Origin: an uncultured Planctomycetales bacterium
GTDB taxonomy: Bacteria > Omnitrophota > Gorgyraeia > Zapsychrales > JAHFFX01
Direction of reading: 5' to 3'
Length of the DNA stretch: 36,494 nucleotides
NCBI GenBank assembly: GCA_964571895.1
Contig: CAZNDW010000003.1
Location: 1-36,494, forward strand
The position numbers and the translations under genes are program-made. The stretch's first letter is position 1, and each line of letters begins with the position of its first letter. Shown piece by piece: positions 4,500-29,701 of this stretch. The notes beneath the pieces are model-generated. The model searched no databases. It had not been told where the DNA came from and saw nothing but the letters and a program-made list of their open reading frames with translations.

Positions 4500-4981
4500 G
4501 AAGAGTGCTTTGTATTGCCGGATTGACTTTGGGCTTTTTCTTTCTCGAGTTCTTTTTGTTCCATCTTTTAGGCTCATGGTTTAAGCCTAATTTTTTGCTC
4601 CTTTTGATTGTCTTCTTTAATCTCTATCTGGGGATACGCTACAGTCTGCTCACCGCTTTTACGGCGGGGGTCTTGAAAGACAGCTTTGGTTTACATGCCT
4701 TTGGCCTCTACACCTTTGCGTTTGTCCTCTGTGCCTTCCTGACGACCATTGTCCGGAAATATCTTTTTCATACCAGCGCGTATTCGTTCCGTATTCTTCT
4801 GGCCTTCTCCCTAAGCATGTTCCAGGTGCTTGTTGTGTGGGCGTTGTATTCCTTGTTCACACCCGTTGACCCCAATCAGGTCTTAAGGTACGTCCTGGCG
4901 CCGGAAGTGATACCGACGACGCTCATCGCCAGTTATACGTTTTTTTATCTTAAAAGATGCGTATTAAAATTCTCCGTGTAA
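4496..4981 (+). CDS. mreD: Rod shape-determining protein MreD
   Basis: Polytopic membrane protein of about 161 aa. The ATG at 4496 overlaps the mreC stop (ATGA). The longer 4436 ORF start lies inside mreC. Assigned by synteny between mreC and mrdA. Confidence 0.75.
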   Translation: MRRVLCIAGLTLGFFFLEFFLFHLLGSWFKPNFLLLLIVFFNLYLGIRYSLLTAFTAGVLKDSFGLHAFGLYTFAFVLCAFLTTIVRKYLFHTSAYSFRILLAFSLSMFQVLVVWALYSLFTPVDPNQVLRYVLAPEVIPTTLIASYTFFYLKRCVLKFSV

Positions 4982-6666
4982 TCATCATCGGCTTATTTGT
5001 CCTCGTTGCCTTTTACCTGGGCTACCTTCAGTTGATTCGGGGACCGTACTTTTATAGCTTAAGCAAAAATAATCATATTCGGGTTGTTTCCCTGGAGGGC
5101 CAGCGGGGACGTATCTTGGATCGTTATGGAGCCCTGCTGGCGGATAATCGCAAGGTGTTCGAGGTTGTGGTGATTCCCGGGGAACTGAAGGATCGCGAGG
5201 GATTATTTGATTTTTTGAGTCAGACTCTGCAGGTTGAGAAAGAAAAATTGCTGGAGACCTACAACCAGAAAATGTATGCCTCTTTTGCTCCGGTTGTTGT
5301 TCGAGAGGATATCACCCGCACCCAAGCCATTGTCATTGAAGAAAATAAATTCCGTTTTCCAGGATTGCTCGTGCAGGAAGATTATCGTCGGTTTTATCCC
5401 TATAAAGACACAGCAGCGCATCTTTTGGGATACGTCGGCAAGATCAGCCGTTCAAAAATCGAAGAATTAAAAAATTACGGATACAATCCTCAAAGTGTAA
5501 TTGGATATTCCGGCGTCGAAGAATTTTACGACCGATACCTCAAAGGGGAAGAGGGAGGCATGCAGATTGAGATCAACAGCCGGGGCGAACAAGTGAGGCT
5601 CTTAGGGTTGAAGGAGCCTGTAAAAGGCCAGGATGTGACCTTGACCATTGATCTTCGGATCCAGCAGGCCCTTACGGAATTATTGGGGAATCAGAGGGGA
5701 GTTATTATTGTGATGACGCTGGATTCAGGCGAAATTCTAGGGGTGGCCAGCAGCCCCAGCTATGATCCCAATATTTTTGTTCCAAAGACGAATCTAAGCA
5801 CTTCTTTGCCATTTTCGGATTCGGGCTCTCCCCTCTTGAACAGGGCCATCAGCGGTCAATACCCCCCGGGTTCGATCTTTAAGATTTCCGTGGCGCTGTG
5901 CGCTTTAAAGGAGGGCAGGATCAATCCCCATCGAACCTTTCATTGCAACGGTTATTATAAATTGGGAGAAAGAGAATTCCGCTGCACCCATGCGCATGGC
6001 GATCAAGATTTAATCCAGGCCATTGCCCATTCCTGCAATGTTTATTTTTATCATCTCGGTTTAATGGTCGGTCCGGAGTTAATGGAAAAATACGCCAGAC
6101 TGCTGGGACTCGGGGCCTTAAGCAGCGTGGATCTGCCTTATGAGGCCAGAGGATCGATCCCCAATCCCCGCGACCGGAAGATCGGTTATCCCAAGACGTG
6201 GTATCAAGGAGACACCTTGAATCTTTCTATTGGGCAAGGAGAGATGCTCACGACTCCCTTGCAACTGGTGCAGATGATGGCTACACTCGCCCAAAATGGC
6301 AAAAGGGTGCGTCCTCACGTGGTGAAATCCATAGGGGGTTTAGAAGTCTCCCAGAGCCCTTATCAGATGATTTCTGTTGATCAAAAATCTCTTCGGCCCC
6401 TTCAGCAGGGGCTGGAAGCGGTCGTGAGCGATGATTCCGGAACCGGCCATGTTTTAGCGATTCCGGGTCTTTTGACAGCCGGCAAGACCGGGACAGCCCA
6501 GGCGGGAGAGGGCCGCAGTCCGCATGCCTGGTTTGTTGGTTATAGTAGCTCCGGGAAAAACAGGATTGCCTTTGTTGTGTTTTTAGAGCACGGCGGAGCC
6601 AGCCAGAACGCCTGCCGTGTGGCAAGAGATTTATTAATGCGGCTTAAGGAGAAAGATATTTTATAA
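4957..6666 (+). CDS. mrdA: Penicillin-binding protein 2 (elongasome transpeptidase)
   Basis: 569 aa with an N-terminal TM anchor. Motifs: SxxK (GSIFK), SxN (HSCN), KTG (GKTGTAQ). Lies upstream of rodA. Confidence 0.9.
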   Translation: MRIKILRVIIIGLFVLVAFYLGYLQLIRGPYFYSLSKNNHIRVVSLEGQRGRILDRYGALLADNRKVFEVVVIPGELKDREGLFDFLSQTLQVEKEKLLETYNQKMYASFAPVVVREDITRTQAIVIEENKFRFPGLLVQEDYRRFYPYKDTAAHLLGYVGKISRSKIEELKNYGYNPQSVIGYSGVEEFYDRYLKGEEGGMQIEINSRGEQVRLLGLKEPVKGQDVTLTIDLRIQQALTELLGNQRGVIIVMTLDSGEILGVASSPSYDPNIFVPKTNLSTSLPFSDSGSPLLNRAISGQYPPGSIFKISVALCALKEGRINPHRTFHCNGYYKLGEREFRCTHAHGDQDLIQAIAHSCNVYFYHLGLMVGPELMEKYARLLGLGALSSVDLPYEARGSIPNPRDRKIGYPKTWYQGDTLNLSIGQGEMLTTPLQLVQMMATLAQNGKRVRPHVVKSIGGLEVSQSPYQMISVDQKSLRPLQQGLEAVVSDDSGTGHVLAIPGLLTAGKTGTAQAGEGRSPHAWFVGYSSSGKNRIAFVVFLEHGGASQNACRVARDLLMRLKEKDIL

Positions 6667-6667
6667 A

Positions 6668-7774
6668 ATGCACCGGCATTTACAAAAGATCATCTGGTCT
6701 GCGGTCTTGATGATTATGGGAATAGGGCTTCTCGCCCTGTACAGTGCGACCTATGGGAATGTCCGGGTCACACAGGAGGTCTTTTACGACCAGTCTTTGT
6801 GTGCCCTGGTGGGGGTGGGGCTCATGTTTATTTTAAGCCGGGTGGATTACAGGAAATTCTTTGATGCGGCTTATATTTTTTATGGCCTGAATGTTTTGTT
6901 GCTTTTGGGAGTGCTGGCCGCAGGACGCTACGCCATGGGAGCGAAACGGTGGATGGAGCTAGGGGCCTTCAGCTTTCAGCCATCGGAGCTGATGAAGCTG
7001 GCTCTCATTCTGGCCCTGGGGCGTTACTTCAGCAACCGTCGGCCGTCTTTATCCTTTAATCTGCGCAGCCGCGTGGGTGTTGTGTGGGGGGATTTGGTAT
7101 GTCCCTTTCTTATGGCAGCGTTGCCGATGGCTCTTGTTTTTAAACAACCGGATTTGGGCACGGCTTTTTTGATATTCGGAGTATTCCTCGTCATTCTTTT
7201 TGCCAGTGGGTTGGAATACAGATATCTTGTCTGGTTTATGATCCTGTGCGTTAGCGCTGTGCCGGTCATCTGGTATTTTCTTAAAGGATATCAGAAGATG
7301 AGGCTTTTGGTTTTTTTGAATCCCAATATCGACCCTTTGGGGGCCGGTTACACGATCATTCAATCGAAGATTGCGGTTGGTTCCGGAGGCCTGTTCGGCA
7401 AAGGGTGGTTGGCTGGAACCCAAAATCAATTAAATTTTTTGCCAGAGAGGCATACCGATTTTATTTTTTCAGTGATCGGTGAAGAATGGGGGCTGGTGGG
7501 AACCATCGTTACGATTGGGTGCTTCTTTATTTTGGCCCACAGCGGTTTGAATATTGCCCAAAACCAGAAAGATCGATTTGGGATGCTGGTGACGGCCGGG
7601 ATTGTTGCCATTTTAACGCTTCAGGTGGTTGTCAACGTGGGAATGGTGATGGGGTTATTCCCGGTTGTGGGGATCACGCTGCCCTTGATCAGCTATGGGC
7701 GCAGTTCTTTTATGGTCTTTGTCTTGATGGTTGGCTTTTTGCTTAACTTAAGCAAAAGACGGACCGTTTTTTAA
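6668..7774 (+). CDS. rodA: SEDS-family peptidoglycan glycosyltransferase RodA
   Basis: 368 aa polytopic protein with FtsW/RodA-like motifs (SFQPSELMKLALIL, LPERHTDFIFSVIGEEWG, PLISYGRSS). Directly follows mrdA. Confidence 0.9.
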   Translation: MHRHLQKIIWSAVLMIMGIGLLALYSATYGNVRVTQEVFYDQSLCALVGVGLMFILSRVDYRKFFDAAYIFYGLNVLLLLGVLAAGRYAMGAKRWMELGAFSFQPSELMKLALILALGRYFSNRRPSLSFNLRSRVGVVWGDLVCPFLMAALPMALVFKQPDLGTAFLIFGVFLVILFASGLEYRYLVWFMILCVSAVPVIWYFLKGYQKMRLLVFLNPNIDPLGAGYTIIQSKIAVGSGGLFGKGWLAGTQNQLNFLPERHTDFIFSVIGEEWGLVGTIVTIGCFFILAHSGLNIAQNQKDRFGMLVTAGIVAILTLQVVVNVGMVMGLFPVVGITLPLISYGRSSFMVFVLMVGFLLNLSKRRTVF

Positions 7775-7965: not shown

Positions 7966-7998
7966 GGAAAAGTGAGCCAAGAAAGGAGGCCGAACGCC

Positions 7999-9432
7999 AT
8001 GAGCAGTGTTTTTGATAAAAAACTTTTATCGACATACGCCATTAAAAATCAACTGGGCATAGCCTTGGGCTTGATTGGGGTCGCCTTTTTAGTTTTTCTG
8101 GGATATCTTTTGCCCGGGGTCTCCTCCTGGTTCGAGAATAAGACCCTTTTTTATGCGGTGATCTTCATTGTTTTTTTTATTTTGGTTTTGGGTTTTTTGA
8201 TCATTTGCCACATCGTGGAACCGATGGTCAAGATCAGCCAGGAAGCAAGATTTATCGCCGAGGGAGATTTCAACCGGGAGATCCAGCTATTTCGTGAAGA
8301 CGAGATTGGCCAATTGGGGGCGGCTTTAAACCACATGATCCATCGGATGAAAGCCAATGTCGAGGAATTAAAAAATTTTTCACAAACGACCGAAACCATT
8401 AATACGGAAATCAACCGGCGCGTTGTTACCCTGTCCAATCTTTTGGAGGTCAGTAACCTCATCGCCCAAAATGCCCAGCTTAAAGAAATTGTGGAAATCG
8501 GGGTGGGCAAATGCCTATCCTCAGGGATCATGACGTTTGCCGGACTGATCCTTAAGGATGAAAAGACGAGTGAGTATCACGTCTTTTATGTGAGTGGACA
8601 AAGAAGCGAGGAACTCCTTGCGCAAGGCATTCGGGATCTGAAAGTCACGCTTGGTTCCGGAGTCTTGGGTAAGGCGATTCTTAAACAAAAACCCATGGTC
8701 ATTGACAGCCAGACCGGCATGAGTCCCGAGATCAAAGAATTCAGGAATCAATTTGCGATCCCCAACGCTATCTTAGTTCCGATATCAGCCAAAGGAAATA
8801 TGTACGGATTGTTGATCGCGGGCAATGATGAAAAGAAATTCCTTTGTTCTAATGCGGAACGAGAGTTTTTGCAGTTGATTGCCAAACAGATTGCCATTGC
8901 TTACAGCAATGAGCTTCTGAAAAAAGAATTCGAGAGATCCGATACCCTGGACCGGCTGACCGGTCTTTTCAACACAACGTATATCGATCGGCATCTGCCG
9001 GAGGAGATCAAAAGGGCCGCGAGTTTTCAAAAGCCTTGTTCATTGGTCCTGATGGCCGTTGACCATTTCGAAGATTACCATACGGCCTTCGGCCATATGG
9101 CTGCGGAAAATGTTTTGACGAGGCTGGGATTTCTGCTGAAAGAAACGATGAGTGGTTTGGATCAGGCCGCGCGGTTTGGGGATCATACCTTTGTCTTGAT
9201 CCTGCCGGAAAAAAATAAACGCCACTCAATCGAAATAGCGGAAGGATTAAGAGGAAAAATAGAAGAACTTTTTTCCCCTGAGAAAGATCTCCACAAACGA
9301 TTAACCTCAAGCTTTGCGGTGACCGAGAACCCACTCGATGGGGCGAGTGCCCCAGAGCTCATCCGGAAGGCACAGGAGATTTTAAAAACGGCCCTCCAGC
9401 AAGGCGGAAACAGGGTCTGTCATAAGGCATAG
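7999..9432 (+). CDS. Membrane HAMP-GAF protein with a degenerate GGDEF domain
   Basis: From ORF 7972..9432. The ATG at 7999 follows AAGGAGG (7983-7989). The protein has two TM segments, a HAMP-like segment and a GAF-like middle region. The C-terminal GGDEF fold (DRLTGLFN...) has FGDHTF (9175-9192) in place of GG(D/E)EF. No RxxD I-site lies upstream of it. Confidence 0.8.
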   Translation: MSSVFDKKLLSTYAIKNQLGIALGLIGVAFLVFLGYLLPGVSSWFENKTLFYAVIFIVFFILVLGFLIICHIVEPMVKISQEARFIAEGDFNREIQLFREDEIGQLGAALNHMIHRMKANVEELKNFSQTTETINTEINRRVVTLSNLLEVSNLIAQNAQLKEIVEIGVGKCLSSGIMTFAGLILKDEKTSEYHVFYVSGQRSEELLAQGIRDLKVTLGSGVLGKAILKQKPMVIDSQTGMSPEIKEFRNQFAIPNAILVPISAKGNMYGLLIAGNDEKKFLCSNAEREFLQLIAKQIAIAYSNELLKKEFERSDTLDRLTGLFNTTYIDRHLPEEIKRAASFQKPCSLVLMAVDHFEDYHTAFGHMAAENVLTRLGFLLKETMSGLDQAARFGDHTFVLILPEKNKRHSIEIAEGLRGKIEELFSPEKDLHKRLTSSFAVTENPLDGASAPELIRKAQEILKTALQQGGNRVCHKA

Positions 9433-9482
9433 GGTGGGAAAGACAGCTCGGGAGATGTCCTTGATGATAGAGAGTTTAAAGC

Positions 9483-9944
9483 ATGAAACATTTTAAAAAG
9501 ACGACGAATAAGCCTTTGGGAGAACTTTTGGTAGAACGCGGCACGATCAATCGAGAAGAGTTGGAGATGGCCCTCAATTATCAAAAAGAGCAGGGGGGGC
9601 TCCTGGGAGATATTTTGGTGGAATTAAAATTTGCCCGGGAGGAAGATATTGCCCAAGCCTTAACGTGCCAATACGGGTTTCCTTATCTTCCTTTGTCCAA
9701 TTATGAGATCGATCCGGATGTGATCAATGCGATTCCCGAAAATGTGTGCCGGCAGTTTTGTCTGATTCCCATCGATAAAATCGGAAAGAGCTTGACCATG
9801 GCCATGGTGGATCCCCTGAACGTTCAGGCCATCGAAGACGTGGAGCTCGTCACCGGCTGCTCGGTCCAGACCTTCGTCAGCACCCCAACCGATATTAAAA
9901 ATTCCCTCAACAAGTACTATAAGACAAAATCATGTTCTCCTTAA
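9483..9944 (+). CDS. Standalone GspE/MshE N-terminal (T2SSE_N / MshEN-like) domain protein
   Basis: 153 aa. PLGELLVERGTINREELEMALNYQ is followed by LLGDILVELKFAREEDIAQAL and FCLIPIDK. There is no ATPase domain. Confidence 0.8.
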   Translation: MKHFKKTTNKPLGELLVERGTINREELEMALNYQKEQGGLLGDILVELKFAREEDIAQALTCQYGFPYLPLSNYEIDPDVINAIPENVCRQFCLIPIDKIGKSLTMAMVDPLNVQAIEDVELVTGCSVQTFVSTPTDIKNSLNKYYKTKSCSP

Positions 9945-11674
9945 AAGAACGCCTCAGAGAATTACTCATCGACACCCAGGTCATCAAAGAAGAAGATTTT
10001 CGCCGCGCTCTAGAAGAACACAAACAATTCGGCGGCGAATTCAGCAAAATTTTAGTCAAGCGAAATTTGATTCAGGAAGATCAGCTGACCTTGATCTTAA
10101 GTGAAGGATTGGATCTTCCTCCCGTTGATATCACCCGTCTTAAGATCAATCCAGAAATCCTGCGGAGTTTCCCCCAGGAATTGGCCCTCAAGTATCAGGT
10201 CATTCCTATTGCCAGAACAGGCGATCATTGGACTCTGGCCCTGTCCGATCCTCTCAATATTTTTGCCATTGAAGATTTAGACATCTTAAAAGGCCTGAAG
10301 ATCATCCCCATTATGAGCGACCCCAAAGGCATTGCCCAGGTCTTGGAGGTTTACTCCCTAGGGAGCACAGCGACAAAATTGGAAAAGATTATTCAAGACA
10401 GCAAGGAAACCGAGGAGGGCTCGTTGATCAAGGAGGCGATGGGGGATATGGATAAATCCGCCATCGAAAAACTGACCCAAGAGGCCCCGATCATTAAGCT
10501 CACCGATGCGATTATCAAACAAGCGGTTTTGGCCAAAGCGAGCGATGTCTTCATCGAGCCGATGGAGAAGACCTTGCGGATCCGCTATCGGATTGATGGG
10601 ATTATCCGGGAGATCGATCGCATGTCCAAGGTGTTGTATTTTCCGCTGGTATCGAGAATAAAAGTGATTTCCAATCTGGACATTTCCGAGCACCGTCTGC
10701 CCCAGGATGGACGGTTTAAGACGATCATGGAAGGAGAAAAGCAAGTGGATTTTCGGGTCAGTGTGCTTCCTACGATATTCGGAGAGAATGTTGTTTTTCG
10801 GATCTTGGATAAGAATTTGGAGATGCTCGATCTTCCCAAGCTGGGGTTTAATCAAAAATCCCTCAAGACCCTGCAGGAATGTTCCCAAAGACCCCATGGG
10901 ATGATTTTAACCTGCGGACCGACGGGTTCCGGCAAGACCACCACCTTGTATTCCGTCCTCAAATTCATTGACTCTCCCGAGAAGAATATCGTAACGGTCG
11001 AAGATCCTGTGGAATATCAAATGAAGGGGATCAACCAAGTGAACGTCAAGCCCCAGGTGGGGTTGACCTTTGCCAGCAGCCTTCGTTCCATCCTGAGGCA
11101 AGACCCCGATGTGATTCTGATTGGGGAAATCAGGGACACGGAGACCATGGACATTGCGGTGAAGGCGGCCTTAACCGGGCACCTCGTCTTAAGCTCCCTG
11201 CATACAACCACAGCGGCGGGATCGGTCATCCGGATGATGAATATGGGGGTTGAGCCCTTTCTGATGTGTTCTTCTGTGATTGCCGTCGTGGCGCAGCGGT
11301 TGGTGAGGAGAATCTGTGGTCCCTGCAAAGACTCTTATGCGGCGTCGCCGGTGTTGGTGGAGAAAGCAGGGTTTGAGAAGTTGTTTGGAAAAAAGAAAAT
11401 CGAATTATACCGGGGGCGGGGATGTCCGCATTGTTTTAATACCGGCTATAGCGGGCGGGTCATTATCAGTGAGATTCTTAAGCTCACCGCCAAGGTCAAG
11501 GAATTGATCCTGGGCCGTGTGGGGGAGCCCAAAATCAAACAAGCCGGGCGAGCCGAAGGGATGACCACCATGCGGGAAGACGGTCTTGCCAAGGCCTTGG
11601 AAGGAGTCACTTCGTTAGAAGAGGTGATGCGTGTCACGGCCCCCGATGAGGAGCTGGAGAAAGGCGCCTCTTAA
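9932..11674 (+). CDS. pilB: Type IV pilus assembly ATPase, PilB/GspE family (paralog 1)
   Basis: 580 aa with an N-terminal T2SSE_N domain. Motifs: Walker A GPTGSGKTT, Asp box VEDPVEY, Walker B DVILIGEIRD, His box TGHLVLSSLHT. Tetracysteine motif CGPC...CPHC. Confidence 0.9.
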   Translation: MFSLKERLRELLIDTQVIKEEDFRRALEEHKQFGGEFSKILVKRNLIQEDQLTLILSEGLDLPPVDITRLKINPEILRSFPQELALKYQVIPIARTGDHWTLALSDPLNIFAIEDLDILKGLKIIPIMSDPKGIAQVLEVYSLGSTATKLEKIIQDSKETEEGSLIKEAMGDMDKSAIEKLTQEAPIIKLTDAIIKQAVLAKASDVFIEPMEKTLRIRYRIDGIIREIDRMSKVLYFPLVSRIKVISNLDISEHRLPQDGRFKTIMEGEKQVDFRVSVLPTIFGENVVFRILDKNLEMLDLPKLGFNQKSLKTLQECSQRPHGMILTCGPTGSGKTTTLYSVLKFIDSPEKNIVTVEDPVEYQMKGINQVNVKPQVGLTFASSLRSILRQDPDVILIGEIRDTETMDIAVKAALTGHLVLSSLHTTTAAGSVIRMMNMGVEPFLMCSSVIAVVAQRLVRRICGPCKDSYAASPVLVEKAGFEKLFGKKKIELYRGRGCPHCFNTGYSGRVIISEILKLTAKVKELILGRVGEPKIKQAGRAEGMTTMREDGLAKALEGVTSLEEVMRVTAPDEELEKGAS

Positions 11675-11688
11675 GATGAGGTTCGAGG

Positions 11689-13395
11689 ATGAGTGAAACC
11701 TTAAAAGACCATATCATCAAAGCCTTGATCGAGCTGCGGCATCTGAAAAAAGAAGATATCGATGAGGCCTTGGCTTTACAGAAACAAAAAGGACTTCCTC
11801 TGGAGAAGGCCTTCATTGAGAAGGGCCTGATCACGGAGAAGGACTTGTTGATTTTGCTCATTAAAGAACTCAGAATCCCATCGATCAATTTGACGAAATA
11901 TAAAATTGATCCCGGCCTCAAAGCCGTCATTCCCGAACGGCTCGCCCGACAATACCACATTATCCCGATTTCCCAGCTGGGGGATACAATCACAATCGCC
12001 TTATCGAATCCTTGGAATATCTTTGCCATCGATGATTTGAGAAATATCACCGGTAAAGATATCGATGCCATCATGAGCACAGATTCCGAGATCATGAAGG
12101 CGATCGACCATTACTATGGGAGAAAGGCCACCAGCACGGTTGCGGAAATCAGCAAGGATATCTCTGTCGAGGGTTTGGAAATTATCTCCGAGCAAGAACA
12201 GGAAACGCTCGATACCACGGTCGATGCCAGTGAACAGGCCCCGATTATTCGCATGGTGGATTTGGTCATCACCGAGGCCATCAAGCAGAGGGCCTCGGAT
12301 ATCCATCTTGAGCCCACAGCAGAAAATATGCGCGTGCGCTACCGGATCGACGGAGTTTTGCAGGATATCCTGAATATTCCTAAAGAAAATCAGAATGCAA
12401 TTATTGTCCGGATCAAGATCATGTCGCGGCTGGATATCACCGCCTCCCGCATCCCTCAGGACGGGCGGTTCAAATTGCGTCTCGAGGAGAAAGAAATCGA
12501 TTTTCGGGTTTCCCTTTTGCCTACAACCTACGGCCAAAAGATCGTCATGCGGGTTTTGGACAAAAAGAATCTGGGGATCGGTTTGGATGGCTTGGGTTTT
12601 TCGAAAGAGGCCGTAGCGCAACTCCAAGAGGCGAGCACGAAACCTTTTGGGATGATCCTCGTCACGGGACCGACCGGCAGCGGAAAATCCACGACCCTTT
12701 ATTCGATCGTCAATCGGTTGAATACCGTTGATAAGAATATTATCACGGTCGAGGACCCGGTAGAGTACTTGATGGAAGGATTCACCCAGATTCAAGTCCG
12801 TCCCGAGATCGGGCTCAGTTTTGCCGCTGGATTGAGGTCCATTCTCCGCCAGAGCCCGGACATCGTGATGGTTGGAGAGATCCGGGACTCTGAAACCGCC
12901 GACATCGCCATCAAAGCCGCCTTGACTGGCCAGTTGGTTTTCTCGACCCTCCACACCAACGATGCCGCCGGCGCCCTCACCCGCTTGGTGGACATGGGGG
13001 TTGAGTCCTTTTTGGTTGCCTCCAGCCTCGTGACCGTCACGGCCCAGCGTCTGTGCCGGCAGATCTGTTCGCATTGCAAGGAACCGGTCGATATCCCATC
13101 CCCGGTCATTAAGGATTTGGGAATCAAAGTGCTGGCGGGGACAAAGTTTTATAAAGGAAAGGGGTGTGAGACGTGCCGAAAGACCGGATACCTGGGACGG
13201 CTCGGGATAACAGAAATCTTAAATGTGGATGACACGATCCGTGAGATGCTCCTTAAGGGTGATTCCTCCGACGAGATCAAGCGGTACGCTTGCCAGCACA
13301 ATCATATGACCACTTTAAGAGAAGATATCTTTCAGAAATTTACCTCGGGACTGACCACTCTGGAGGAAGTCCTCCGGATCACCACGGGTGATTAG
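11689..13395 (+). CDS. PilB/GspE-family ATPase (paralog 2, His-box variant)
   Basis: 568 aa with the same architecture as paralog 1. Motifs: GPTGSGKST, VEDPVEY, DIVMVGEIRD, CSHC...CETC. The His box reads TGQLVFSTLHT (first His replaced by Gln). Confidence 0.9.
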   Translation: MSETLKDHIIKALIELRHLKKEDIDEALALQKQKGLPLEKAFIEKGLITEKDLLILLIKELRIPSINLTKYKIDPGLKAVIPERLARQYHIIPISQLGDTITIALSNPWNIFAIDDLRNITGKDIDAIMSTDSEIMKAIDHYYGRKATSTVAEISKDISVEGLEIISEQEQETLDTTVDASEQAPIIRMVDLVITEAIKQRASDIHLEPTAENMRVRYRIDGVLQDILNIPKENQNAIIVRIKIMSRLDITASRIPQDGRFKLRLEEKEIDFRVSLLPTTYGQKIVMRVLDKKNLGIGLDGLGFSKEAVAQLQEASTKPFGMILVTGPTGSGKSTTLYSIVNRLNTVDKNIITVEDPVEYLMEGFTQIQVRPEIGLSFAAGLRSILRQSPDIVMVGEIRDSETADIAIKAALTGQLVFSTLHTNDAAGALTRLVDMGVESFLVASSLVTVTAQRLCRQICSHCKEPVDIPSPVIKDLGIKVLAGTKFYKGKGCETCRKTGYLGRLGITEILNVDDTIREMLLKGDSSDEIKRYACQHNHMTTLREDIFQKFTSGLTTLEEVLRITTGD

Positions 13396-13403
13396 GAAGC
13401 TGT

Positions 13404-13448
13404 CCCCCTCCCTAGCCATCCCCCATTTGGGGGGAGGGGAGGTGGGGG
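13404..13448. repeat. C-run / G-run imperfect hairpin
   Basis: CCCCCTCCCTAGCCATCCCCC-ATTT-GGGGGGAGGGGAGGTGGGGG, starting 9 nt after the paralog-2 stop codon. Confidence 0.7.
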
Positions 13449-13538
13449 AAAGATTTTAAAGTATTTGAAATTTTTGCAGGGACAGGTTACATTTAAAGTG
13501 GGGGGTCGGGCAGTCGTCCTCCTAGAGGAGAGAATTTT

Positions 13539-14000
13539 ATGGGCTCAGCAGAGAAACCCAATATCCCAAGACCATTGATTGGGGAGATTCTGATCAAAAG
13601 GAATATGATCACCCCCAAGCAATTGGCGGAAGCCTTGGAGATTCAAAAGAAACAGGATGGCTTTATCGGAGAGATTTTGGTCAACCTCGGATACCTTGAG
13701 GAGAGGGACATCGTGGTTGCCTTGGTTGTCCAGTGCGGCCTTCCCTACATCGCCGTCAACAAATACGATATCGATCCTGGTGTCCTCAAACTCATCCCCA
13801 CGGAGGTCGCCCGGAATCTGCATGTGATTCCCTTGGATCGCGTGGGGGATGTGCTCAGTGTGGTCATGATCAATCCCTTGAATGAACCGTTAAAAGAACA
13901 ACTGAAGCAAATCACGGGCTGTCGCATCGCCCCCTTCATTGCCACAAAAACAGAGATCGATGAGACGATCGCTCGATTTTATCCCATCACGGCGGGATGA
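13539..14000 (+). CDS. Second standalone T2SSE_N / MshEN-like domain protein
   Basis: 153 aa. LIGEILIKRNMITPKQLAEALEIQ is followed by FIGEILVNLGYLEERDIVVAL and LHVIPLDR. A GGAGAG ribosome-binding site precedes the ATG. Confidence 0.8.
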   Translation: MGSAEKPNIPRPLIGEILIKRNMITPKQLAEALEIQKKQDGFIGEILVNLGYLEERDIVVALVVQCGLPYIAVNKYDIDPGVLKLIPTEVARNLHVIPLDRVGDVLSVVMINPLNEPLKEQLKQITGCRIAPFIATKTEIDETIARFYPITAG

Positions 14001-14020
14001 GCTTTCCAATCATAGGATCG

Positions 14021-14163
14021 CTTATTCTCCTACGCCCCCACTGCTTTCTTGCGAAAGCAAGAAGCGGGGGCTTCGGAGCAATTATTCTGCATGGAGAATT
14101 CCTGCCTGTCGGCAGACAGGATTGCTGCGAAGCCCCACCTTTAGCGGGGCGTAGCAGAATAAG
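14021..14163. repeat. Nested palindromic element of about 143 bp, same family as 7783-7926
   Basis: The 18-bp outer stem CTTATTCTCCTACGCCCC (14021-14038) / GGGGCGTAGCAGAATAAG (14146-14163) has one mismatch. Inner hairpins: CCCCCACTGCTTTCTTGC-GAAA-GCAAGAAGCGGGGG, GGGGCTTCGGAGCAAT / ATTGCTGCGAAGCCCC and CCTGTC-GGCA-GACAGG. Confidence 0.8.
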
Positions 14164-14179
14164 ACAAGGACGACGGGAT

Positions 14180-15388
14180 ATGATCATCTTTAAATACGTG
14201 GCCAAAGATCCTAATGCCAAAACTGTCACCGGCAAGATGGCCGCTGAGAATCAGATGACTGTGCTCGAGGAGCTCAGAAAGCGCAAGCTCATTGTGATTT
14301 CTATTTCTGAGATTAAAGGAATAACTCTCTTCAAGCCAGGGACAGGCAAGAAGAAGGTTAAACCCGATGACGTTGTGATCTTTGCCAGACAATTGAGCAC
14401 CATGGTGGAGGCCGGGATCCCCATCCTGCAGGCCTTGGATGCCTTGCAGGAGCAGATGACCAGTTCTCATTTTCAGAGTGTCATTGCCTCTATGCGAGAT
14501 GACATTCAGATGGGAAGCAGCCTTTCGGCGGCCTTTGCCAAACACCCAAGGGTCTTTGGAGCGTTTTTTATCAACATGGTGAAGGTCGGGGAAACGGGCG
14601 GAATTTTAAGCGCGATCCTGGATCGGGTTTCAACCTATATGGAAAAGATCCTGAAATTGCGGCGGAAGGTCCAATCTGCCATGGTGTATCCGATGGTTGT
14701 GATTTCCATGGCCGGTATTATTACGGTGGTTCTGCTGGTGAAGGTTGTCCCGACTTTTGCGACCATCTATCAATCTTTTAATAAAGATCTGCCGGCTATG
14801 ACGCAGTTTCTCATAAATATCAGCACGGTTTTGAAACAACAGCTCCTTTGGTATATCGCGGCAATTGTTATCCTCATTTTTATCATGTCCCGTTGGTATT
14901 GCACCCCCAAAGGGGCCTTGACCATTGATCGGATGAAATTGAGGATGCCCATTTTTGGTGAGCTGATTCGAAAAGTCGCCATCAGCCGTTTTTGCCGGAC
15001 TTTGGGCACCTTGATTCAAAGCGGAGTCCCCATCTTAGAATCGTTGGATATCGTCGGCAAGACCTCGGGAAATAAAGTGATCGAGGTCGTCACCGAGAAT
15101 ATTAAAAACAATGTCCGCGAAGGGGAAAGCATCGCCGTGCCGCTGGTTCGAAGCGGGGTTTTCCCTCCTATGGTTACCCGTATGATTGCGATCGGAGAGA
15201 AATCGGGACAGATGGAGAAGATGTTGACAAAGATCGCGGAATTTTATGATGATCAGGTGGACGCGGCTGTGGCCGGCTTGACCAGTATCATTGAACCGGT
15301 CATCATTGGATTTTTGGGGATTGTGGTGGGATTTATTGTGATCGCGTTATTTTTACCGATTCTGAGCATCACTCAGCTTCTCAAATAA
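14180..15388 (+). CDS. pilC: Type IV pilus platform protein PilC (GspF family)
   Basis: About 402 aa starting at MIIFKYVAKDPNAKTVTGKM, a typical PilC N-terminus. It has two GspF repeats and three TM segments. The ORF is also open from ATG 13997, which forms an ATGA overlap with the upstream stop. Those 61 extra codons are mostly the palindromic element. Confidence 0.85.
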   Translation: MIIFKYVAKDPNAKTVTGKMAAENQMTVLEELRKRKLIVISISEIKGITLFKPGTGKKKVKPDDVVIFARQLSTMVEAGIPILQALDALQEQMTSSHFQSVIASMRDDIQMGSSLSAAFAKHPRVFGAFFINMVKVGETGGILSAILDRVSTYMEKILKLRRKVQSAMVYPMVVISMAGIITVVLLVKVVPTFATIYQSFNKDLPAMTQFLINISTVLKQQLLWYIAAIVILIFIMSRWYCTPKGALTIDRMKLRMPIFGELIRKVAISRFCRTLGTLIQSGVPILESLDIVGKTSGNKVIEVVTENIKNNVREGESIAVPLVRSGVFPPMVTRMIAIGEKSGQMEKMLTKIAEFYDDQVDAAVAGLTSIIEPVIIGFLGIVVGFIVIALFLPILSITQLLK

Positions 15389-15417: not shown

Positions 15418-16239
15418 ATGGGAAAAATGAGAAAATCGGTTTTTTTCTTATCTTTGATGATAGGTCTTATTCTATGGTCAACCGATATTTATGCCGAAAC
15501 AGAAGCACCCTCATTGGAGGGTAGTTTGAAACAGAGTCTCACCAATTTTAGAAAGAGCGTTGAAGAATTAAAGAAAAACAATGATCTCTTAAGGGAGCAG
15601 ATTAAGGCATTGCGGCTTGAGGCACTGAAATTCCAGGAAACTCTTAAGTCTTTATCGTCTGAGGAGCCGACACGCCAGCGAGAGGAATTCCAGGGCTTAG
15701 AGAAAACAATCAGAGAGCTCAAAGAAAAAGAGAATCATTTGATGGAAGAACTCTCCCACAGACAAACCGCTGCCGAAGGGTTAAAACAAGAATATCATCA
15801 GTTGAATGAACCTTTGGCCGCCATCGAACACAATGCCAACCCCCTTCAGCGTAGTCGAAAGGTTGATCCTAAAAGCCTCTCCGGAAAGCGGGAACAATTA
15901 AAAAAAGAATATCTGAAAGGAAATCAAGAATTGGATGTTTTGTTAAACGAAGAGAAGACTCTGCAGCAAGAGATATCCCGTATCGAACAGCCCCGGGATC
16001 AGAAGCTCATGGCTCTTGAGAAAGAAATCCAAGATTTAAGATCAAAAGGCGAGGCCTTTGCCAGCGCTTTGACACAGATTCGCCAGAGCTTTGACGAGGA
16101 CGAATTTCTCAGTGCCCGATCCTTAAGAGACGAAAAAAAGCTGCAGGAGACTCTGGATCTTTTACAAAAAGAGAATGAGGTTCTGACCGAAAAACTGTTA
16201 AGGTTATTGATGCAGACAAGGAATGGCTTAGACCGATGA
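15418..16239 (+). CDS. Secreted coiled-coil protein, function unknown
   Basis: 273 aa with a signal peptide (FFLSLMIGLILWSTDIYA/ET). The remainder is E/K/L/Q-rich coiled coil. It lies between pilC and the pilin gene. Confidence 0.75.
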   Translation: MGKMRKSVFFLSLMIGLILWSTDIYAETEAPSLEGSLKQSLTNFRKSVEELKKNNDLLREQIKALRLEALKFQETLKSLSSEEPTRQREEFQGLEKTIRELKEKENHLMEELSHRQTAAEGLKQEYHQLNEPLAAIEHNANPLQRSRKVDPKSLSGKREQLKKEYLKGNQELDVLLNEEKTLQQEISRIEQPRDQKLMALEKEIQDLRSKGEAFASALTQIRQSFDEDEFLSARSLRDEKKLQETLDLLQKENEVLTEKLLRLLMQTRNGLDR

Positions 16240-16257: not shown

Positions 16258-16287
16258 TTGACACTGAGTCTTTGGGCATGTTATACT
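16258..16287 (+). promoter_or_regulatory. Candidate sigma70-type promoter upstream of the riboswitch-like element
   Basis: TTGACA (16258-16263), 18-nt spacer, TATACT (16282-16287). Confidence 0.45.
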
Positions 16288-16304: not shown

Positions 16305-16374
16305 GGCGCCCCCGCCTTTGGCGGGGGGCGCCTCTCAGAGTTGCCCTGAGCAAGCCCCGCCCTGAAGGGCGGGG
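16305..16374. repeat. Pair of GC-rich hairpins
   Basis: GGCGCCCCCGCC-TTT-GGCGGGGGGCGCC (16305-16332) and GCCCCGCCC-TGAA-GGGCGGGGC (16353-16374). No T-run follows either one. Confidence 0.7.
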
Positions 16375-16400
16375 CGAGTCGAAGGGTTGACAATTGAGAA

Positions 16401-16510
16401 GATCATGATAAAGGTAAACCATTCGTAAGAATGGGGCACAAAGCTAGAGGGTTCTGCTTTGCCCCGATTGAAAACGTCGGGACTTTGCAGGACAGCCAGT
16501 TACCATGATG
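16401..16510 (+). promoter_or_regulatory. c-di-GMP-I (GEMM) riboswitch-like aptamer
   Basis: GGUAAACCAUUCGUAAGAAUGGGGCACAAAGC (16413-16444) matches the remembered V. cholerae Vc2 core at 27 of 32 positions. It has a GNRA-capped hairpin and a second hairpin, GUUCUGC / GCAGGAC. The closing segment is AGCCAGUUACC. P1 is AUCAU / AUGAU. Confidence 0.7.
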
Positions 16511-16533
16511 AAGAAGGGCGTTTGAGGCTTTGA

Positions 16534-16575
16534 CCTATTCTACGGGTGTGCGGGTTGGTAGAATAGGTTTTTTTA
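16534..16575 (+). terminator. Intrinsic terminator (likely riboswitch expression platform)
   Basis: 10-bp perfect stem CCTATTCTAC (16534-16543) / GTAGAATAGG (16558-16567) with a 14-nt loop, followed by TTTTTTT. Confidence 0.8.
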
Positions 16576-16588
16576 TTTGGGAAAGAAA

Positions 16589-16616
16589 TTGACAAGACAT
16601 TGGGTAATGATACAAT
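16589..16616 (+). promoter_or_regulatory. Sigma70-type promoter with extended -10, upstream of the pilin gene
   Basis: TTGACA (16589-16594), 16-nt spacer ending in TGA, TACAAT (16611-16616). It would give a 5' UTR of about 155 nt. Confidence 0.5.
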
Positions 16617-16776
16617 CGACTTAAGAATGTGATCCGAGTCGAAGAGCCATCAATAGGCCGGGAAGATGTGAGAGAGTAAAGAAGCAACCGTCATCATCCT
16701 TATTGGACGCCTCTTCTCTTCTGGGTCTGCAGTTTCGGCGAAAGCGGCTTAATCACGATCCAGAAAGGGGGGAAAG

Positions 16777-17181
16777 ATGATGAAGAGAATAAGAAAGAAC
16801 CATCGGGGATTCACCTTGGTCGAGATTATGATCGTTGTGGCGATCATTGCGCTCTTGGCCGCGATTGCGATCCCGAACCTGCTGAGGGCGAAGATATCGG
16901 CCAACGATGCCTCTGCACGGGCGACCTTAAGAGCGTTGTCCACCGCATCCGAAACCTTCGCGACCTCCAACAACGGCAATTATCCTGCGACCATGACCGA
17001 TCTGACGGGCGCGACACCACCGTACATCAACACCGACTACTGTGGCGCGACCGTATCGGGGTATGCGTTCACCTGCACAAACGCGGCGGGAAGCTATACG
17101 TATGTCGCCACGCCGGTGACGGTCGGGACCTCAGGAACCACAACGTACACCATCACGACCGGAGGTGTTTTGACACCATAG
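16777..17181 (+). CDS. pilA: Type IV major pilin
   Basis: 134 aa. The canonical prepilin signal is KNHRG/FTLVEIMIVVAIIALLAAIAIPNLL. The C-terminal half is small and T/G/A-rich. The start is ATG 16777 or 16780. Confidence 0.9.
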   Translation: MMKRIRKNHRGFTLVEIMIVVAIIALLAAIAIPNLLRAKISANDASARATLRALSTASETFATSNNGNYPATMTDLTGATPPYINTDYCGATVSGYAFTCTNAAGSYTYVATPVTVGTSGTTTYTITTGGVLTP

Positions 17182-28159: not shown

Positions 28160-29701
28160 ATGGCACTTCACGATAAAACCCAAATCGAATTCGGCGATTT
28201 CCAAACGCCGCTCAATCTGGCCTGGGACGTATGCACCGTCGTCAGGCGGACTGGATTTCAGCCGCGATCTGTCCTTGAGCCTACCTGTGGTCGAGGAACC
28301 TTTCTTCAGGCCGCGGTTTCTGAGTTCCCCTGTGCATCTCGTGTTCTCGGCTTCGAACGGGACCCCCGCTATGTGGAACTCGCCCGCGCTGCAGTGGAAG
28401 CATGTCCCCACGAAGCGCAGGTTGAGGTGATCGCGGCAGATTTCTTCTCAACCAACTGGAAGCAGGTAATCGATAGCTTGCCGGATCCGATCCTAGTGAT
28501 CGGCAATCCGCCATGGGTTACCAATGCCACGCTGGGTGGTCTGGGTAGCCGCAATCTTCCTGTGAAATCGAATATTGACAACCTTCGAGGTATCGAAGCC
28601 ATTACTGGACGGTCTAATTTTGATATCTCTGAGTGGATGCTTCGTGAGAGCATCCAGTGGCTTGCTTCACGTACGGGCGTGCTCGCCGTCCTCTGCAAGA
28701 CAGCGGTCGCTAGGAAGGTGCTCGCTTTTGCCTGGTCACGAGATATTCCCATGGAGTCTACGTCTATTTTTCGGATTGACGCGAAGACGCACTTTGGCGC
28801 TTCTGTTGACGCCTGCCTGTTGTTGGTTAGGACGCGCCCCGGTGGCGATACCAGGAAATGCGAGGACTACGACTCGCTCTCTGCGTCGCAGGCGCGCCGC
28901 ACATTCGGTTTCCGTCAAGGTGAACTCGTTGCGGACGTGAAGCTCTTCGAGCGTTGGAAGTCGCTGTATAGAACGGGACTCAACGGCTGGAGGTCAGGAG
29001 TCAAACATGATTGTAGTAGGGTCTTCGAGCTCGAGCCTATGGCAGGAGGCTTCCAAAACGGTCTACGAGAACACATCGAGATCGAACTGGAGGTTGTCTT
29101 CCCCCTTATGAAGAGCTCGGACCTTGCGGCAGGCCGGGCATCCAGGAAGTGGCTGCTCATGCCGCAGCGTTCTATGACGGAATCCCCCAACCGCCTGCAG
29201 ACTGTAGCACCCAGGACCTGGGGGTACTTGGTGCAGCACCAGCAACTACTGGAGAGACGCGGTAGCTCGATCTATCGGAATCGGCCACAGTTCACGGTTT
29301 TCGGTGTTGGACCATATTCTTTTTCTCCATGGAAGGTGGCTATCTCAGGGCTGTACAAGAAGCTGGACTTCAGATGTGTTGGCCCCGTTGGAACGAAACC
29401 CGTGGTCTTCGACGATACCTGCTATTTTTTTCCTTGTGACTCCGAGGAACAGGCCAGCGTCCTGCATCGCCTGGTGACCTCAGATGTTGCCACAGAGTTT
29501 TGGACGGGGTTGGTTTTTTGGGATTGTAAGCGACCGATTACGGCTAGACTTCTCAATGCGCTCGACCTAGCAAAGCTAGCGCGGGCGATTGGTGCTTGGG
29601 ACGAGACGACGCGCCTCATCGCAGAGAGGCAGATCATCGACTATGCCGAGCAAGCGCACCAGTGGTTTCTTTTCCATGAGTCAGCGCCCCCCTATGGTTA
29701 A
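28160..29701 (+). CDS. N6-adenine DNA methyltransferase (gamma-class, TaqI/Eco57I-like)
   Basis: 513 aa. Motifs: GDFQTP, motif I LEPTCGRGTFL (28274-28306), motif IV NPPW (28505-28516). The long C-terminal region is a candidate target-recognition domain. Confidence 0.8.
   Translation: MALHDKTQIEFGDFQTPLNLAWDVCTVVRRTGFQPRSVLEPTCGRGTFLQAAVSEFPCASRVLGFERDPRYVELARAAVEACPHEAQVEVIAADFFSTNWKQVIDSLPDPILVIGNPPWVTNATLGGLGSRNLPVKSNIDNLRGIEAITGRSNFDISEWMLRESIQWLASRTGVLAVLCKTAVARKVLAFAWSRDIPMESTSIFRIDAKTHFGASVDACLLLVRTRPGGDTRKCEDYDSLSASQARRTFGFRQGELVADVKLFERWKSLYRTGLNGWRSGVKHDCSRVFELEPMAGGFQNGLREHIEIELEVVFPLMKSSDLAAGRASRKWLLMPQRSMTESPNRLQTVAPRTWGYLVQHQQLLERRGSSIYRNRPQFTVFGVGPYSFSPWKVAISGLYKKLDFRCVGPVGTKPVVFDDTCYFFPCDSEEQASVLHRLVTSDVATEFWTGLVFWDCKRPITARLLNALDLAKLARAIGAWDETTRLIAERQIIDYAEQAHQWFLFHESAPPYG

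Follow-up and report, generated by a model that had tools for sequence, protein, structure and literature searches.

A free-standing MshEN protein as a candidate trans-acting c-di-GMP receptor of the two-ATPase type IV pilus motor in Omnitrophota

Where in a type IV pilus motor would cyclic di-GMP (c-di-GMP) be perceived if the N-terminal domains of its ATPases have lost the residues that contact the ligand? The question is raised by a 36,494-nucleotide (nt) stretch of an Omnitrophota genome (hereafter the window; its close homologues are all Candidatus Omnitrophota), in which two proteins of 153 amino acids (aa), MshEN-A and MshEN-B, lie on either side of the tandem ATPases PilB1 and PilB2. 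MshEN is one of two or three widespread c-di-GMP receptor domains. The reading that we favour, with moderate confidence, is that the type IV pilus motor of this locus, which has two ATPases, uses MshEN-A as a detached c-di-GMP receptor subunit that acts in trans; in loci that have MshEN-B, that protein would probably fill the same role. A first-pass annotation of the window had described two 153-aa, MshEN-only proteins bracketing two PilB-like ATPases, and open reading frames (ORFs) and Pfam matches agree with that description. The features of the motor cluster are as follows.

7972-9432, + strand: membrane protein of 486 aa with HAMP, GAF and degenerate GGDEF domains (Pfam HAMP, GAF_2, GAF, GGDEF)
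9175-9192, + strand: FGDHTF within that protein; GDHTF replaces GG(D/E)EF, and the leading F precedes the motif
9483-9944, + strand: MshEN-A, free-standing MshEN protein of 153 aa (Pfam MshEN, NF053729)
9513-9671, + strand: predicted c-di-GMP site of MshEN-A (motif I, residues 11-34; spacer, 35-39; motif II, 40-63)
9932-11674, + strand: PilB1, PilB-like ATPase of 580 aa (Pfam MshEN and T2SSE, TIGR02538)
9950-10108, + strand: degenerate MshEN motif pair of PilB1 (position 3, R/S; position 24, H/G)
11689-13395, + strand: PilB2, second PilB-like ATPase, 568 aa (Pfam MshEN and T2SSE, TIGR02538)
11710-11868, + strand: degenerate MshEN motif pair of PilB2 (position 3, I/E; position 24, Q/E)
13539-14000, + strand: MshEN-B, second free-standing MshEN protein of 153 aa (Pfam MshEN, NF053729)
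13575-13733, + strand: predicted c-di-GMP site of MshEN-B (motif I, residues 13-36; spacer, 37-41; motif II, 42-65)
14180-15388, + strand: PilC platform protein (T2SSF, 216 bits), in an ORF that opens at 13997

Both small proteins are complete MshEN domains. Pfam returned MshEN (PF05157) as the sole match for each, at 71.8 bits for MshEN-A and 70.7 bits for MshEN-B (cut-off 23.1), bearing out their earlier assignment to this family as T2SSE_N; matches at the locus had E-values of 1e-16 to 1e-135, and with the arrangement recurring in 80 or more species none of it is a coincidental pattern. In pairwise BLAST comparisons, MshEN-A and MshEN-B were 39% identical, and MshEN-B was 30-31% identical to the ATPase N-domains. 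An AlphaFold2 (AF2) model of MshEN-A built on a 103-sequence alignment (predicted local distance difference test, pLDDT, 89.2) has a four-helix bundle at residues 12-64 followed by a beta-alpha-beta region, the alpha/beta C-terminal subdomain; helix 1 begins at residue 12. A run with 25 close homologues, in which the C-terminal subdomain was poor and all-helical (pLDDT 68.7), was discarded. Foldseek ranked Vibrio cholerae MshE with bound c-di-GMP (5HTL) first in the PDB (template-modelling (TM) scores 0.77/0.84, root-mean-square deviation 2.3 Å, E 5e-12), followed by the GSPII domains of PilF, the N-domain of Xanthomonas citri PilB and XpsE. By sequence, the top PDB match was PilF (E 2e-48 over the GSPII repeats).

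We take the true start of MshEN-A to be the ATG at 9483, because residues 5-15 are conserved in orthologues. The public gene call for this protein (P0002; 138 aa at 100% identity and 90% coverage) places the start 15 codons further on, which would clip the beginning of motif I. A four-Cys metal site (C62, C89, C93 and C126, including a CxxxC) was considered and rejected: only C126 is at least 90% conserved phylum-wide and C93 is merely a majority residue. The four cysteines are a feature of the window's sublineage, and a general metal site in MshEN-A appears unlikely.

The c-di-GMP site of MshEN domains consists of two 24-residue motifs joined by a 5-residue spacer, 53 residues in total. Guanine (O6/N7) is contacted by two backbone amides, those of the position-3 Gly and of the residue after it, and the ribose-phosphate ring by the Gln at position 24 (PMC11731258, PMC12002112), while Leu triangles stack on the c-di-GMP bases (PMC5013675, PMC11731258, PMC12002112). 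In V. cholerae MshE, G11L abolishes c-di-GMP binding and G40I weakens it 72-fold (PMC5013675 supplement). The two MshEN peptides quoted in the first-pass annotation are present in the window. Motif I of MshEN-A, PLGELLVERGTINREELEMALNYQ, is encoded at 9513-9584 as described; the MshEN-B peptide, RPLIGEILIKRNMITPKQLAEALEIQ, is found at 13569-13646, an interval of 26 residues that holds two extra codons, with the 24-residue motif beginning at 13575.

At these contact positions the small proteins and the ATPases part company. Position 3 is Gly and position 24 is Gln in both motifs of MshEN-A and MshEN-B in the window. For the comparison we used 80 related loci, one per Omnitrophota species, and aligned four protein groups. 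MshEN-A orthologues keep the Gly of motif I (G13) in 80/81 and that of motif II (G42) in 81/81, and the Gln in 74/81 (Q34) and 81/81 (Q63); in MshEN-B orthologues, all four positions are conserved in 40/40. In a separate alignment of 103 MshEN-A homologues (57-93% identity), G13, Q34, G42 and Q63 are among 25 invariant columns. PilB1 orthologues, in contrast, have K/Q/L/R at position 3 of motif I (Gly in 0/70) and mostly Ser at that of motif II (Ser in 61/70, Gly in 3/70), with G/S/A at motif II position 24; PilB2 orthologues have I/L and D/E/V at the two positions 3 (Gly in 0/65 for each motif) and E at motif II position 24 in 64/65. The earlier view that the standalone proteins fit the motif and the ATPase N-segments are degenerate is therefore upheld in the window and in about 80 species, as contact Gly and Gln residues kept in the former and lost in the latter. 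The NCBIfam model NF053729 (‘c-di-GMP_motif’, cut-off 38 bits) makes the same division within the window (63.9 bits for MshEN-A and 57.7 for MshEN-B versus 34.2 for PilB1 and 31.7 for PilB2) and, at E <= 1e-9, matches 121/121 standalone proteins.

The gene order that the first-pass annotation had marked for a survey of related genomes is a property of the phylum. MshEN-A occurs in all 80 seeded loci, and the order MshEN-A, PilB1, PilB2, PilC is kept wherever the contig is long enough (PilB1 in 69/80, PilB2 in 64/80 and PilC in 57/80), with rodA upstream of the module in most close relatives. MshEN-A is also the most conserved protein of the locus, with a mean identity to the window of 70%, compared with 62% for PilB1, 65% for PilB2, 65% for PilC and 62% for RodA; within MshEN-A, the C-terminal subdomain and the linker between the subdomains (QYGFPYLPLxNYEID) are more conserved than the motif region. 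It lies immediately upstream of PilB1 in 69/69 loci that hold both genes, and in 47 of these the MshEN-A stop and the PilB1 start overlap or are at most 8 nt apart, including 25 with a 1-nt or 4-nt overlap, the kind of junction that is typical of translational coupling. The overlap in the window is 13 nt, in different frames. From these junctions, MshEN-A would usually be translationally coupled to PilB1. All named relatives in three large protein searches belong to Omnitrophota/Omnitrophica, and no named relative of the standalone proteins fell outside them.

A natural fusion suggests which partner MshEN-A serves. Among many multi-MshEN proteins in an exhaustive search of 1.8 billion representatives, a metagenomic one of 765 aa (P0131) joins an MshEN-A-like domain (39% identity, intact motifs) through a Gly/Lys-rich linker of ~40 residues to a full PilB1-like protein, which is 46% identical to PilB1 over 570 residues and 41% identical to PilB2, and whose own N-domain is degenerate in the manner of PilB1. 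Its gene is followed by PilB2-like and PilC genes (locus L087), in the same order as in the window. Together, this fusion and the translational coupling indicate that MshEN-A is likely to act physically with PilB1, and functionally it would be the distal domain of a (MshEN)2-ATPase that is encoded as a separate polypeptide. The first-pass annotation had proposed that c-di-GMP sensing was ‘moved’ from the ATPases to free-standing receptors; the split in binding residues stands, but given the MshEN-A::PilB1 fusion the arrangement is better described as the distal MshEN domain of a multi-MshEN PilB encoded on its own.

Several lineage variants were seen in the same searches. Locus L085 encodes a 212-aa version of MshEN-A in which the ligand-binding bundle is duplicated and all four motifs are intact, and another metagenomic contig has a B-type MshEN gene between a truncated upstream gene and pilC. 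A third MshEN-only type, absent from the window, is a 249-aa protein with an additional N-terminal MshEN_N bundle (L083, 8001-8750), whose gene is not part of the motor cluster: it is flanked by a histone-deacetylase-family gene and rplU and lies 3' of pilMNOPQ (pilQ) and rng. In P0162 (723 aa), an MshEN-A-like domain (51% identity) is fused to a segment that looks PilZ-like by eye (RRxxxR ... DxSxxG) and then to a long Gly/Asp/Thr-rich region resembling the 412-aa PilX-like protein of the window.

The two ATPases are PilB-like rather than certified equivalogs. Pfam scores were 60.3 bits (MshEN) and 450.7 bits (T2SSE) for PilB1 and 72.6 and 449.8 bits for PilB2; both fell below the cut-off of the PilB equivalog model TIGR02538 (612.4 and 622.6 bits; cut-off 675.65), as did their scores of 444 and 484 bits on the TfpB model, whose cut-off is 850. 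Each ATPase has a Walker A motif, an Asp box, a Walker B motif and Cys4. The pair share 48% identity over the ATPase part and 38% over the N-domains, and their His boxes differ consistently, reading TGH in 63/63 PilB1 orthologues and TGQ in 55/55 PilB2 orthologues (12925-12933 in the window, residues 413-415). The tandem ATPases are thus differentiated paralogues, possibly with different catalytic behaviour. Descent of the cluster from a tandem duplication of an MshEN-PilB unit was rejected: it does not fit the order A-B1-B2-B, and the two small proteins resemble each other most closely (39%), as the two ATPase N-domains do (38%).

Upstream of MshEN-A, the 486-aa protein has two N-terminal hydrophobic helices with a very short connecting loop, followed by HAMP (41.1 bits), GAF_2 (43.0 bits) and GGDEF (89.4 bits) domains, so that the GGDEF fold is present. 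The proposal that FGDHTF leaves this domain unlikely to be active gained support: the FKxxND region of the substrate site reads FEDYHT, and the signature is degenerate in 27/27 orthologues examined (GDHEF, AEHEF, GDNDF or SDTEF), none of which has GG(D/E)EF or RxxD. The claimed absence of an RxxD I-site needs qualification, as the equivalent reads SGLD, with Arg lost and Asp retained; orthologues have SxxD or similar. Judged by these residues, the protein is predicted to be incapable of making c-di-GMP, and it is most likely a membrane-bound sensor or scaffold that feeds the same module. It reappears directly upstream of MshEN-A, always degenerate, in the distant loci L081/L082 and L085/L086. 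At L088 (5489-11051), from a lineage further removed, a single-domain REC protein takes its place directly 5' of MshEN, PilB, PilB and PilC, a replacement that suggests that the upstream input modules are interchangeable.

The messenger also appears to act on RNA at this locus. The remaining features of the window are listed here, including the riboswitch.

mreB, mreC and mreD, + strand: 5' of PBP2
4957-6666, + strand: PBP2
6668-7774, + strand: rodA
13403-13449, + strand: G+C-rich hairpin in the PilB2/MshEN-B intergenic region (13396-13538), -36.4 kcal/mol, z -2.2
13450-13474, + strand: A/U hairpin directly 3' of the G+C-rich hairpin
15418-16239: protein of 273 aa, 3' of pilC and 5' of the riboswitch, hydrophobic at its N-terminus and with a long coiled coil
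16403-16507, + strand: c-di-GMP-I riboswitch aptamer (RF01051)
16533-16575, + strand: intrinsic-terminator-like hairpin (sequence and minimum-free-energy fold)
16777-17181, + strand: major pilin with N-methylation motif (Pfam N_methyl, NCBIfam PilA/GspG N-terminus)
Up to 23595, + strand: minor pilins, then pilMNOPQ (Pfam/NCBIfam and ORF translations); an RNase G gene is also encoded

The aptamer matches RF01051 over the full model length (1-87) at 54.6 bits, against a gathering score of 35, and a riboswitch lies upstream of the pilin gene in 6/7 other loci. The riboswitch input noted in the first-pass annotation is therefore real; its combination with a protein-level input is not in itself novel, as the type IV pili of clostridia are known to be under both RNA and protein control (PMC11656802). 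The terminator-like hairpin, with a 12-bp stem and a run of seven U, is 25 nt 3' of the aptamer, and no convincing antiterminator was identified. Sigma-70-like promoters with 11/12 matches are located 5' of the riboswitch (16258-16287) and after the terminator, 5' of the pilin gene (16589-16616); the first promoter and the aptamer are separated by two G+C-rich hairpins (~16306-16333 and ~16354-16377). In locus L063, one of the six others with a riboswitch, the element (16552-16638) scores best as the c-di-GMP-I-GGC variant (RF03167, 64.1 bits) rather than as standard class I.

Within the motor cluster, the hairpins 5' of MshEN-B are accompanied by a weak sigma-70-like site (13465-13493); MshEN-B and pilC may be transcribed as a unit of their own or under attenuation. 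The PilC ORF encodes 463 aa compared with ~401 aa in orthologues, and NCBIfam PilC alignments begin at residue 62; the start is probably Met62 at ~14180, which would leave the first 61 codons (13997-14179) untranslated. The 273-aa coiled-coil protein gave only weak SMC- and GAS-like matches. By tblastn the window contains neither a PilT-type retraction ATPase nor further MshEN copies, and no EAL or PilZ domain was found among the locus proteins scanned with Pfam. Two ORFs, at 267-1220 (317 aa) and 28160-29701 (513 aa), matched no Pfam family at E <= 1e-4.

From the observed domain identities, residue conservation, gene order, fusion and riboswitch we derive a model in which ligand binding, docking partner and sign of regulation are predictions. 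Each small protein would bind one c-di-GMP in its four-helix bundle of two tandem motifs, like MshE and PilF GSPII-B/C. The ligand-bound protein would then dock through its C-terminal subdomain, with PilB1 as the partner and PilB2 or the PilM/PilC platform as possible further ones, and docking would license or stimulate pilus assembly. The N-domains of the ATPases themselves would have lost ligand binding and would serve only as structural domains that contact the platform. The motor would in effect match the clostridial and Thermus enzymes as a (MshEN)2-ATPase, except that its sensing domain comes as a separate, translationally coupled polypeptide. The riboswitch 5' of the pilin gene would place subunit supply under the same messenger, and MshEN-B would be an optional second receptor beside PilC.

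A number of observations weigh against this reading. The Arg at motif position 1 is absent from all four motifs, being replaced in MshEN-A by P (Q/H in most orthologues) and L, and in MshEN-B by L and F. Position 10 is off-pattern in one motif of each protein, with K in MshEN-A motif II and N in MshEN-B motif I (N/K in orthologues). Both proteins consequently miss, through position 1 and one position 10, even the relaxed pattern of Wang et al., which allows R/K/P/N at position 1 and G/A/S at position 10. At E <= 1e-9, NF053729 also takes 68/135 ATPase N-domains of related loci, and we rejected its score as a class discriminator, as it splits the classes in the window and fails across orthologues; because it does not separate them phylum-wide, our use of ‘degenerate’ rests on the Gly and Gln contact positions. 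Even there, the Ser at position 3 of PilB1 motif II might be partly tolerated. Conformity to the motif is not sufficient either: PilF GSPII-A still does not bind when restored to consensus, owing to an N-capped extension of helix 1 that blocks the site and to contacts between the subdomains (PMC12002112). Two components of the locus are dispensable for the module, as the degenerate GGDEF gene lies between rodA and MshEN-A in 23/73 close loci and is absent from 50/73, and MshEN-B is present in 34/56 loci with both PilB2 and PilC and absent from 22/56. The latter absences are genuine, because the gap in those 22 loci is at most 212 nt; MshEN-B is an optional, accessory paralogue, and the two standalone proteins are not equivalent.

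The first of these points is tempered by known binders. PilF GSPII-B, which has K and L at position 1, binds c-di-GMP at 6 nM, and replacement with Arg weakens binding (PMC11731258); NfrB and PA14_29490 bind with Pro at position 1, and NfrB also has Q at position 10. Because verified binders deviate at the same position, the missing Arg is not disqualifying: it lowers the certainty of c-di-GMP binding by the small proteins while leaving such binding compatible with their sequences.

A more elaborate version of the receptor model is less probable. Here PilB1 and PilB2 would form a heteromeric motor for the near-universal type IV pilus of Omnitrophota, which has been associated with attaching to host or prey cells, and the motor's c-di-GMP sensitivity would reside wholly in exchangeable free MshEN subunits (MshEN-A, MshEN-B, and the duplicated-bundle and 249-aa forms), with lineage-specific inputs from HAMP-GAF-GGDEF or REC proteins and with the dead GGDEF protein as the membrane docking or sensing partner of MshEN-A. 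If true, Omnitrophota would have a counterpart of FimX-PilZ-PilB, a modular receptor-adaptor system acting in trans, that is built from the MshEN fold.

The standalone proteins might instead have ceased to bind c-di-GMP and act as structural adaptors that bridge PilB1 and PilB2 to each other or to PilM/PilC. The loss of all four position-1 Arg residues would be expected of such adaptors, GSPII-A provides a precedent for a near-consensus MshEN that does not bind, and the higher conservation of the C-terminal subdomain and linker relative to the motif region points to protein-protein contacts. A structural role, however, leaves unexplained why G13, Q34, G42 and Q63 are invariant in MshEN-A and lost in ATPase N-domains of the same fold. 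The L085 variant, moreover, duplicates the ligand-binding bundle alone and keeps its motifs intact, and in the AF2 model helix alpha-1 begins at residue 12, without an extension at the N-terminus. We therefore consider a ligand-independent adaptor unlikely.

It is also improbable, in our judgement, that the free MshEN proteins are c-di-GMP-dependent decoys or brakes, which would compete for the PilM/PilC docking site or cap an ATPase, and so inhibit assembly or switch between PilB1 and PilB2. They are homologous to the ATPase N1 domain, for which contact with the stator or platform has been proposed (PMC11656802), and this would suit a competitor, as would the position of MshEN-B next to pilC; the differentiated ATPases (TGH versus TGQ) and the lack of PilT in the window leave room for a switching device. 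The fusion to PilB1 and the translational coupling, however, suit a stoichiometric subunit better than a competitor, and c-di-GMP promotes assembly in all characterised MshEN ATPases (PMC11656802). That the small ORFs are pieces of a longer pilB, split by assembly error, frameshift or pseudogene formation, might be suspected from the 13-nt overlap of MshEN-A and PilB1 in different frames and from the fused version elsewhere, but is effectively refuted by conservation: the same split, with a product of 145-153 aa, occurs in 80+ independently assembled species and thousands of metagenomic proteins, the junctions vary (1-nt and 4-nt overlaps, short gaps), and PilB1 has its own complete N-domain and start codon. 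A programmed frameshift fusing MshEN-A to PilB1 was likewise rejected, as 9932-9944 contains no slippery heptamer and junctions differ among species.

How does the receptor-subunit reading compare with what is known? Wang et al. 2016 listed MshEN fused to ATPase, glycosyltransferase, REC, HD-GYP, kinase and other domains, with Pseudomonas aeruginosa PA3740 and cyanobacterial cce_1044 as the sole small forms without an ATPase (PMC5013675). A 2024 review of PilB cofactors covers FimX, PilZ and other effectors, and its passages searched here neither contain the term stand-alone nor describe a free MshEN protein (PMC11656802); according to the same source, how ligand binding at the N-domain is relayed to PilB-type motors has yet to be clarified. 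In the main Omnitrophota genomics paper, type IVa pili are reported as near-universal, and neither c-di-GMP nor PilB is mentioned (PMC10066038). In full-text literature searches for MshEN, no paper was found in which type IV pili are regulated by a free-standing MshEN protein, in line with the impression given in the first-pass annotation that the arrangement had not been characterised. Annotation pipelines label these MshEN proteins ‘hypothetical’ or ‘PilB’. A small soluble sensor separate from a motor whose N-domain is binding-deficient would divide perception from ATPase mechanics, so that coupling becomes testable by mixing. For Omnitrophota, which are uncultured, ultra-small and probably host-dependent, with attachment ascribed to their type IV pili (PMC10066038), it gives a concrete, phylum-wide regulatory module.

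The closest structural parallel is V. cholerae MshE (5HTL), which shares with MshEN-A the two-subdomain fold, tandem 24-residue motifs with a 5-residue spacer, Gly 3, Gln 24 and the hydrophobic positions. There, however, MshEN is the ATPase N-terminus, whereas here it stands alone as a 153-aa protein beside ATPases that have a second copy of their own, which is degenerate; in place of the position-1 Arg of MshE, MshEN-A has P/Q/H and L. Thermus thermophilus PilF, a (GSPII)3-ATPase, likewise has several MshEN/GSPII domains per motor, divided into binding (GSPII-B, -C) and non-binding (GSPII-A) copies, and GSPII-B has Leu at motif II position 1, as does MshEN-A. All PilF copies are in one chain, unlike in Omnitrophota, where the copy predicted to be binding-competent is separate and the ATPase-proximal copy is degenerate. 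The (MshEN)2-ATPase form is known from clostridia and the triple form from Thermus and Deinococcus (PMC5013675 Supplementary Table 4).

PA3740 (MshEN plus a divergent T2SSE_N1) and cce_1044 ((MshEN_N)2) are further small proteins in which MshEN occurs with no ATPase domain (Wang et al. 2016 Supplementary Table 4), and PA3740 is listed among experimentally characterised c-di-GMP binders (PMC5013675 Supplementary Table 4). Neither is described in a pilus motor operon, and the C-terminal subdomain is highly diverged in PA3740 and missing in cce_1044; the Omnitrophota standalone proteins, in contrast, are canonical full MshEN domains coupled to pilB.

Other pilus systems offer functional parallels. 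FimX-PilZ-PilB of Xanthomonas and Pseudomonas also includes a protein with a degenerate GGDEF domain (PMC8389850, PMC11656802), but the receptor there is a degenerate EAL domain and the adaptor is PilZ, whereas the presumed receptor here is MshEN, and the resemblance is functional only. Acinetobacter baylyi PilB/TfpB provides two extension ATPases for one pilus (PMC11656802); the Omnitrophota pair differ in being tandem, in having TGH versus TGQ His boxes and in scoring below both the TfpB and the PilB equivalog cut-offs. In clostridia, MshEN is fused to the ATPase and binding-competent, unlike in Omnitrophota. The C. difficile riboswitch belongs to class II. Clostridial type IV pili nonetheless resemble the Omnitrophota system in receiving c-di-GMP both through a riboswitch ahead of the pilus operon and through an MshEN-PilB (PMC11656802, PMC9765702).

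The MshEN receptor, the degenerate GGDEF domain, multiple PilB paralogues, the riboswitch and outsourced c-di-GMP sensing, as in FimX-PilZ-PilB, are thus all of already known kinds. New at this locus are the phylum-wide, strictly syntenic split of a putatively sensing MshEN domain from the ATPase, the systematic loss of the contact glycines in both ATPases, and a natural fusion that supports the link to PilB1.

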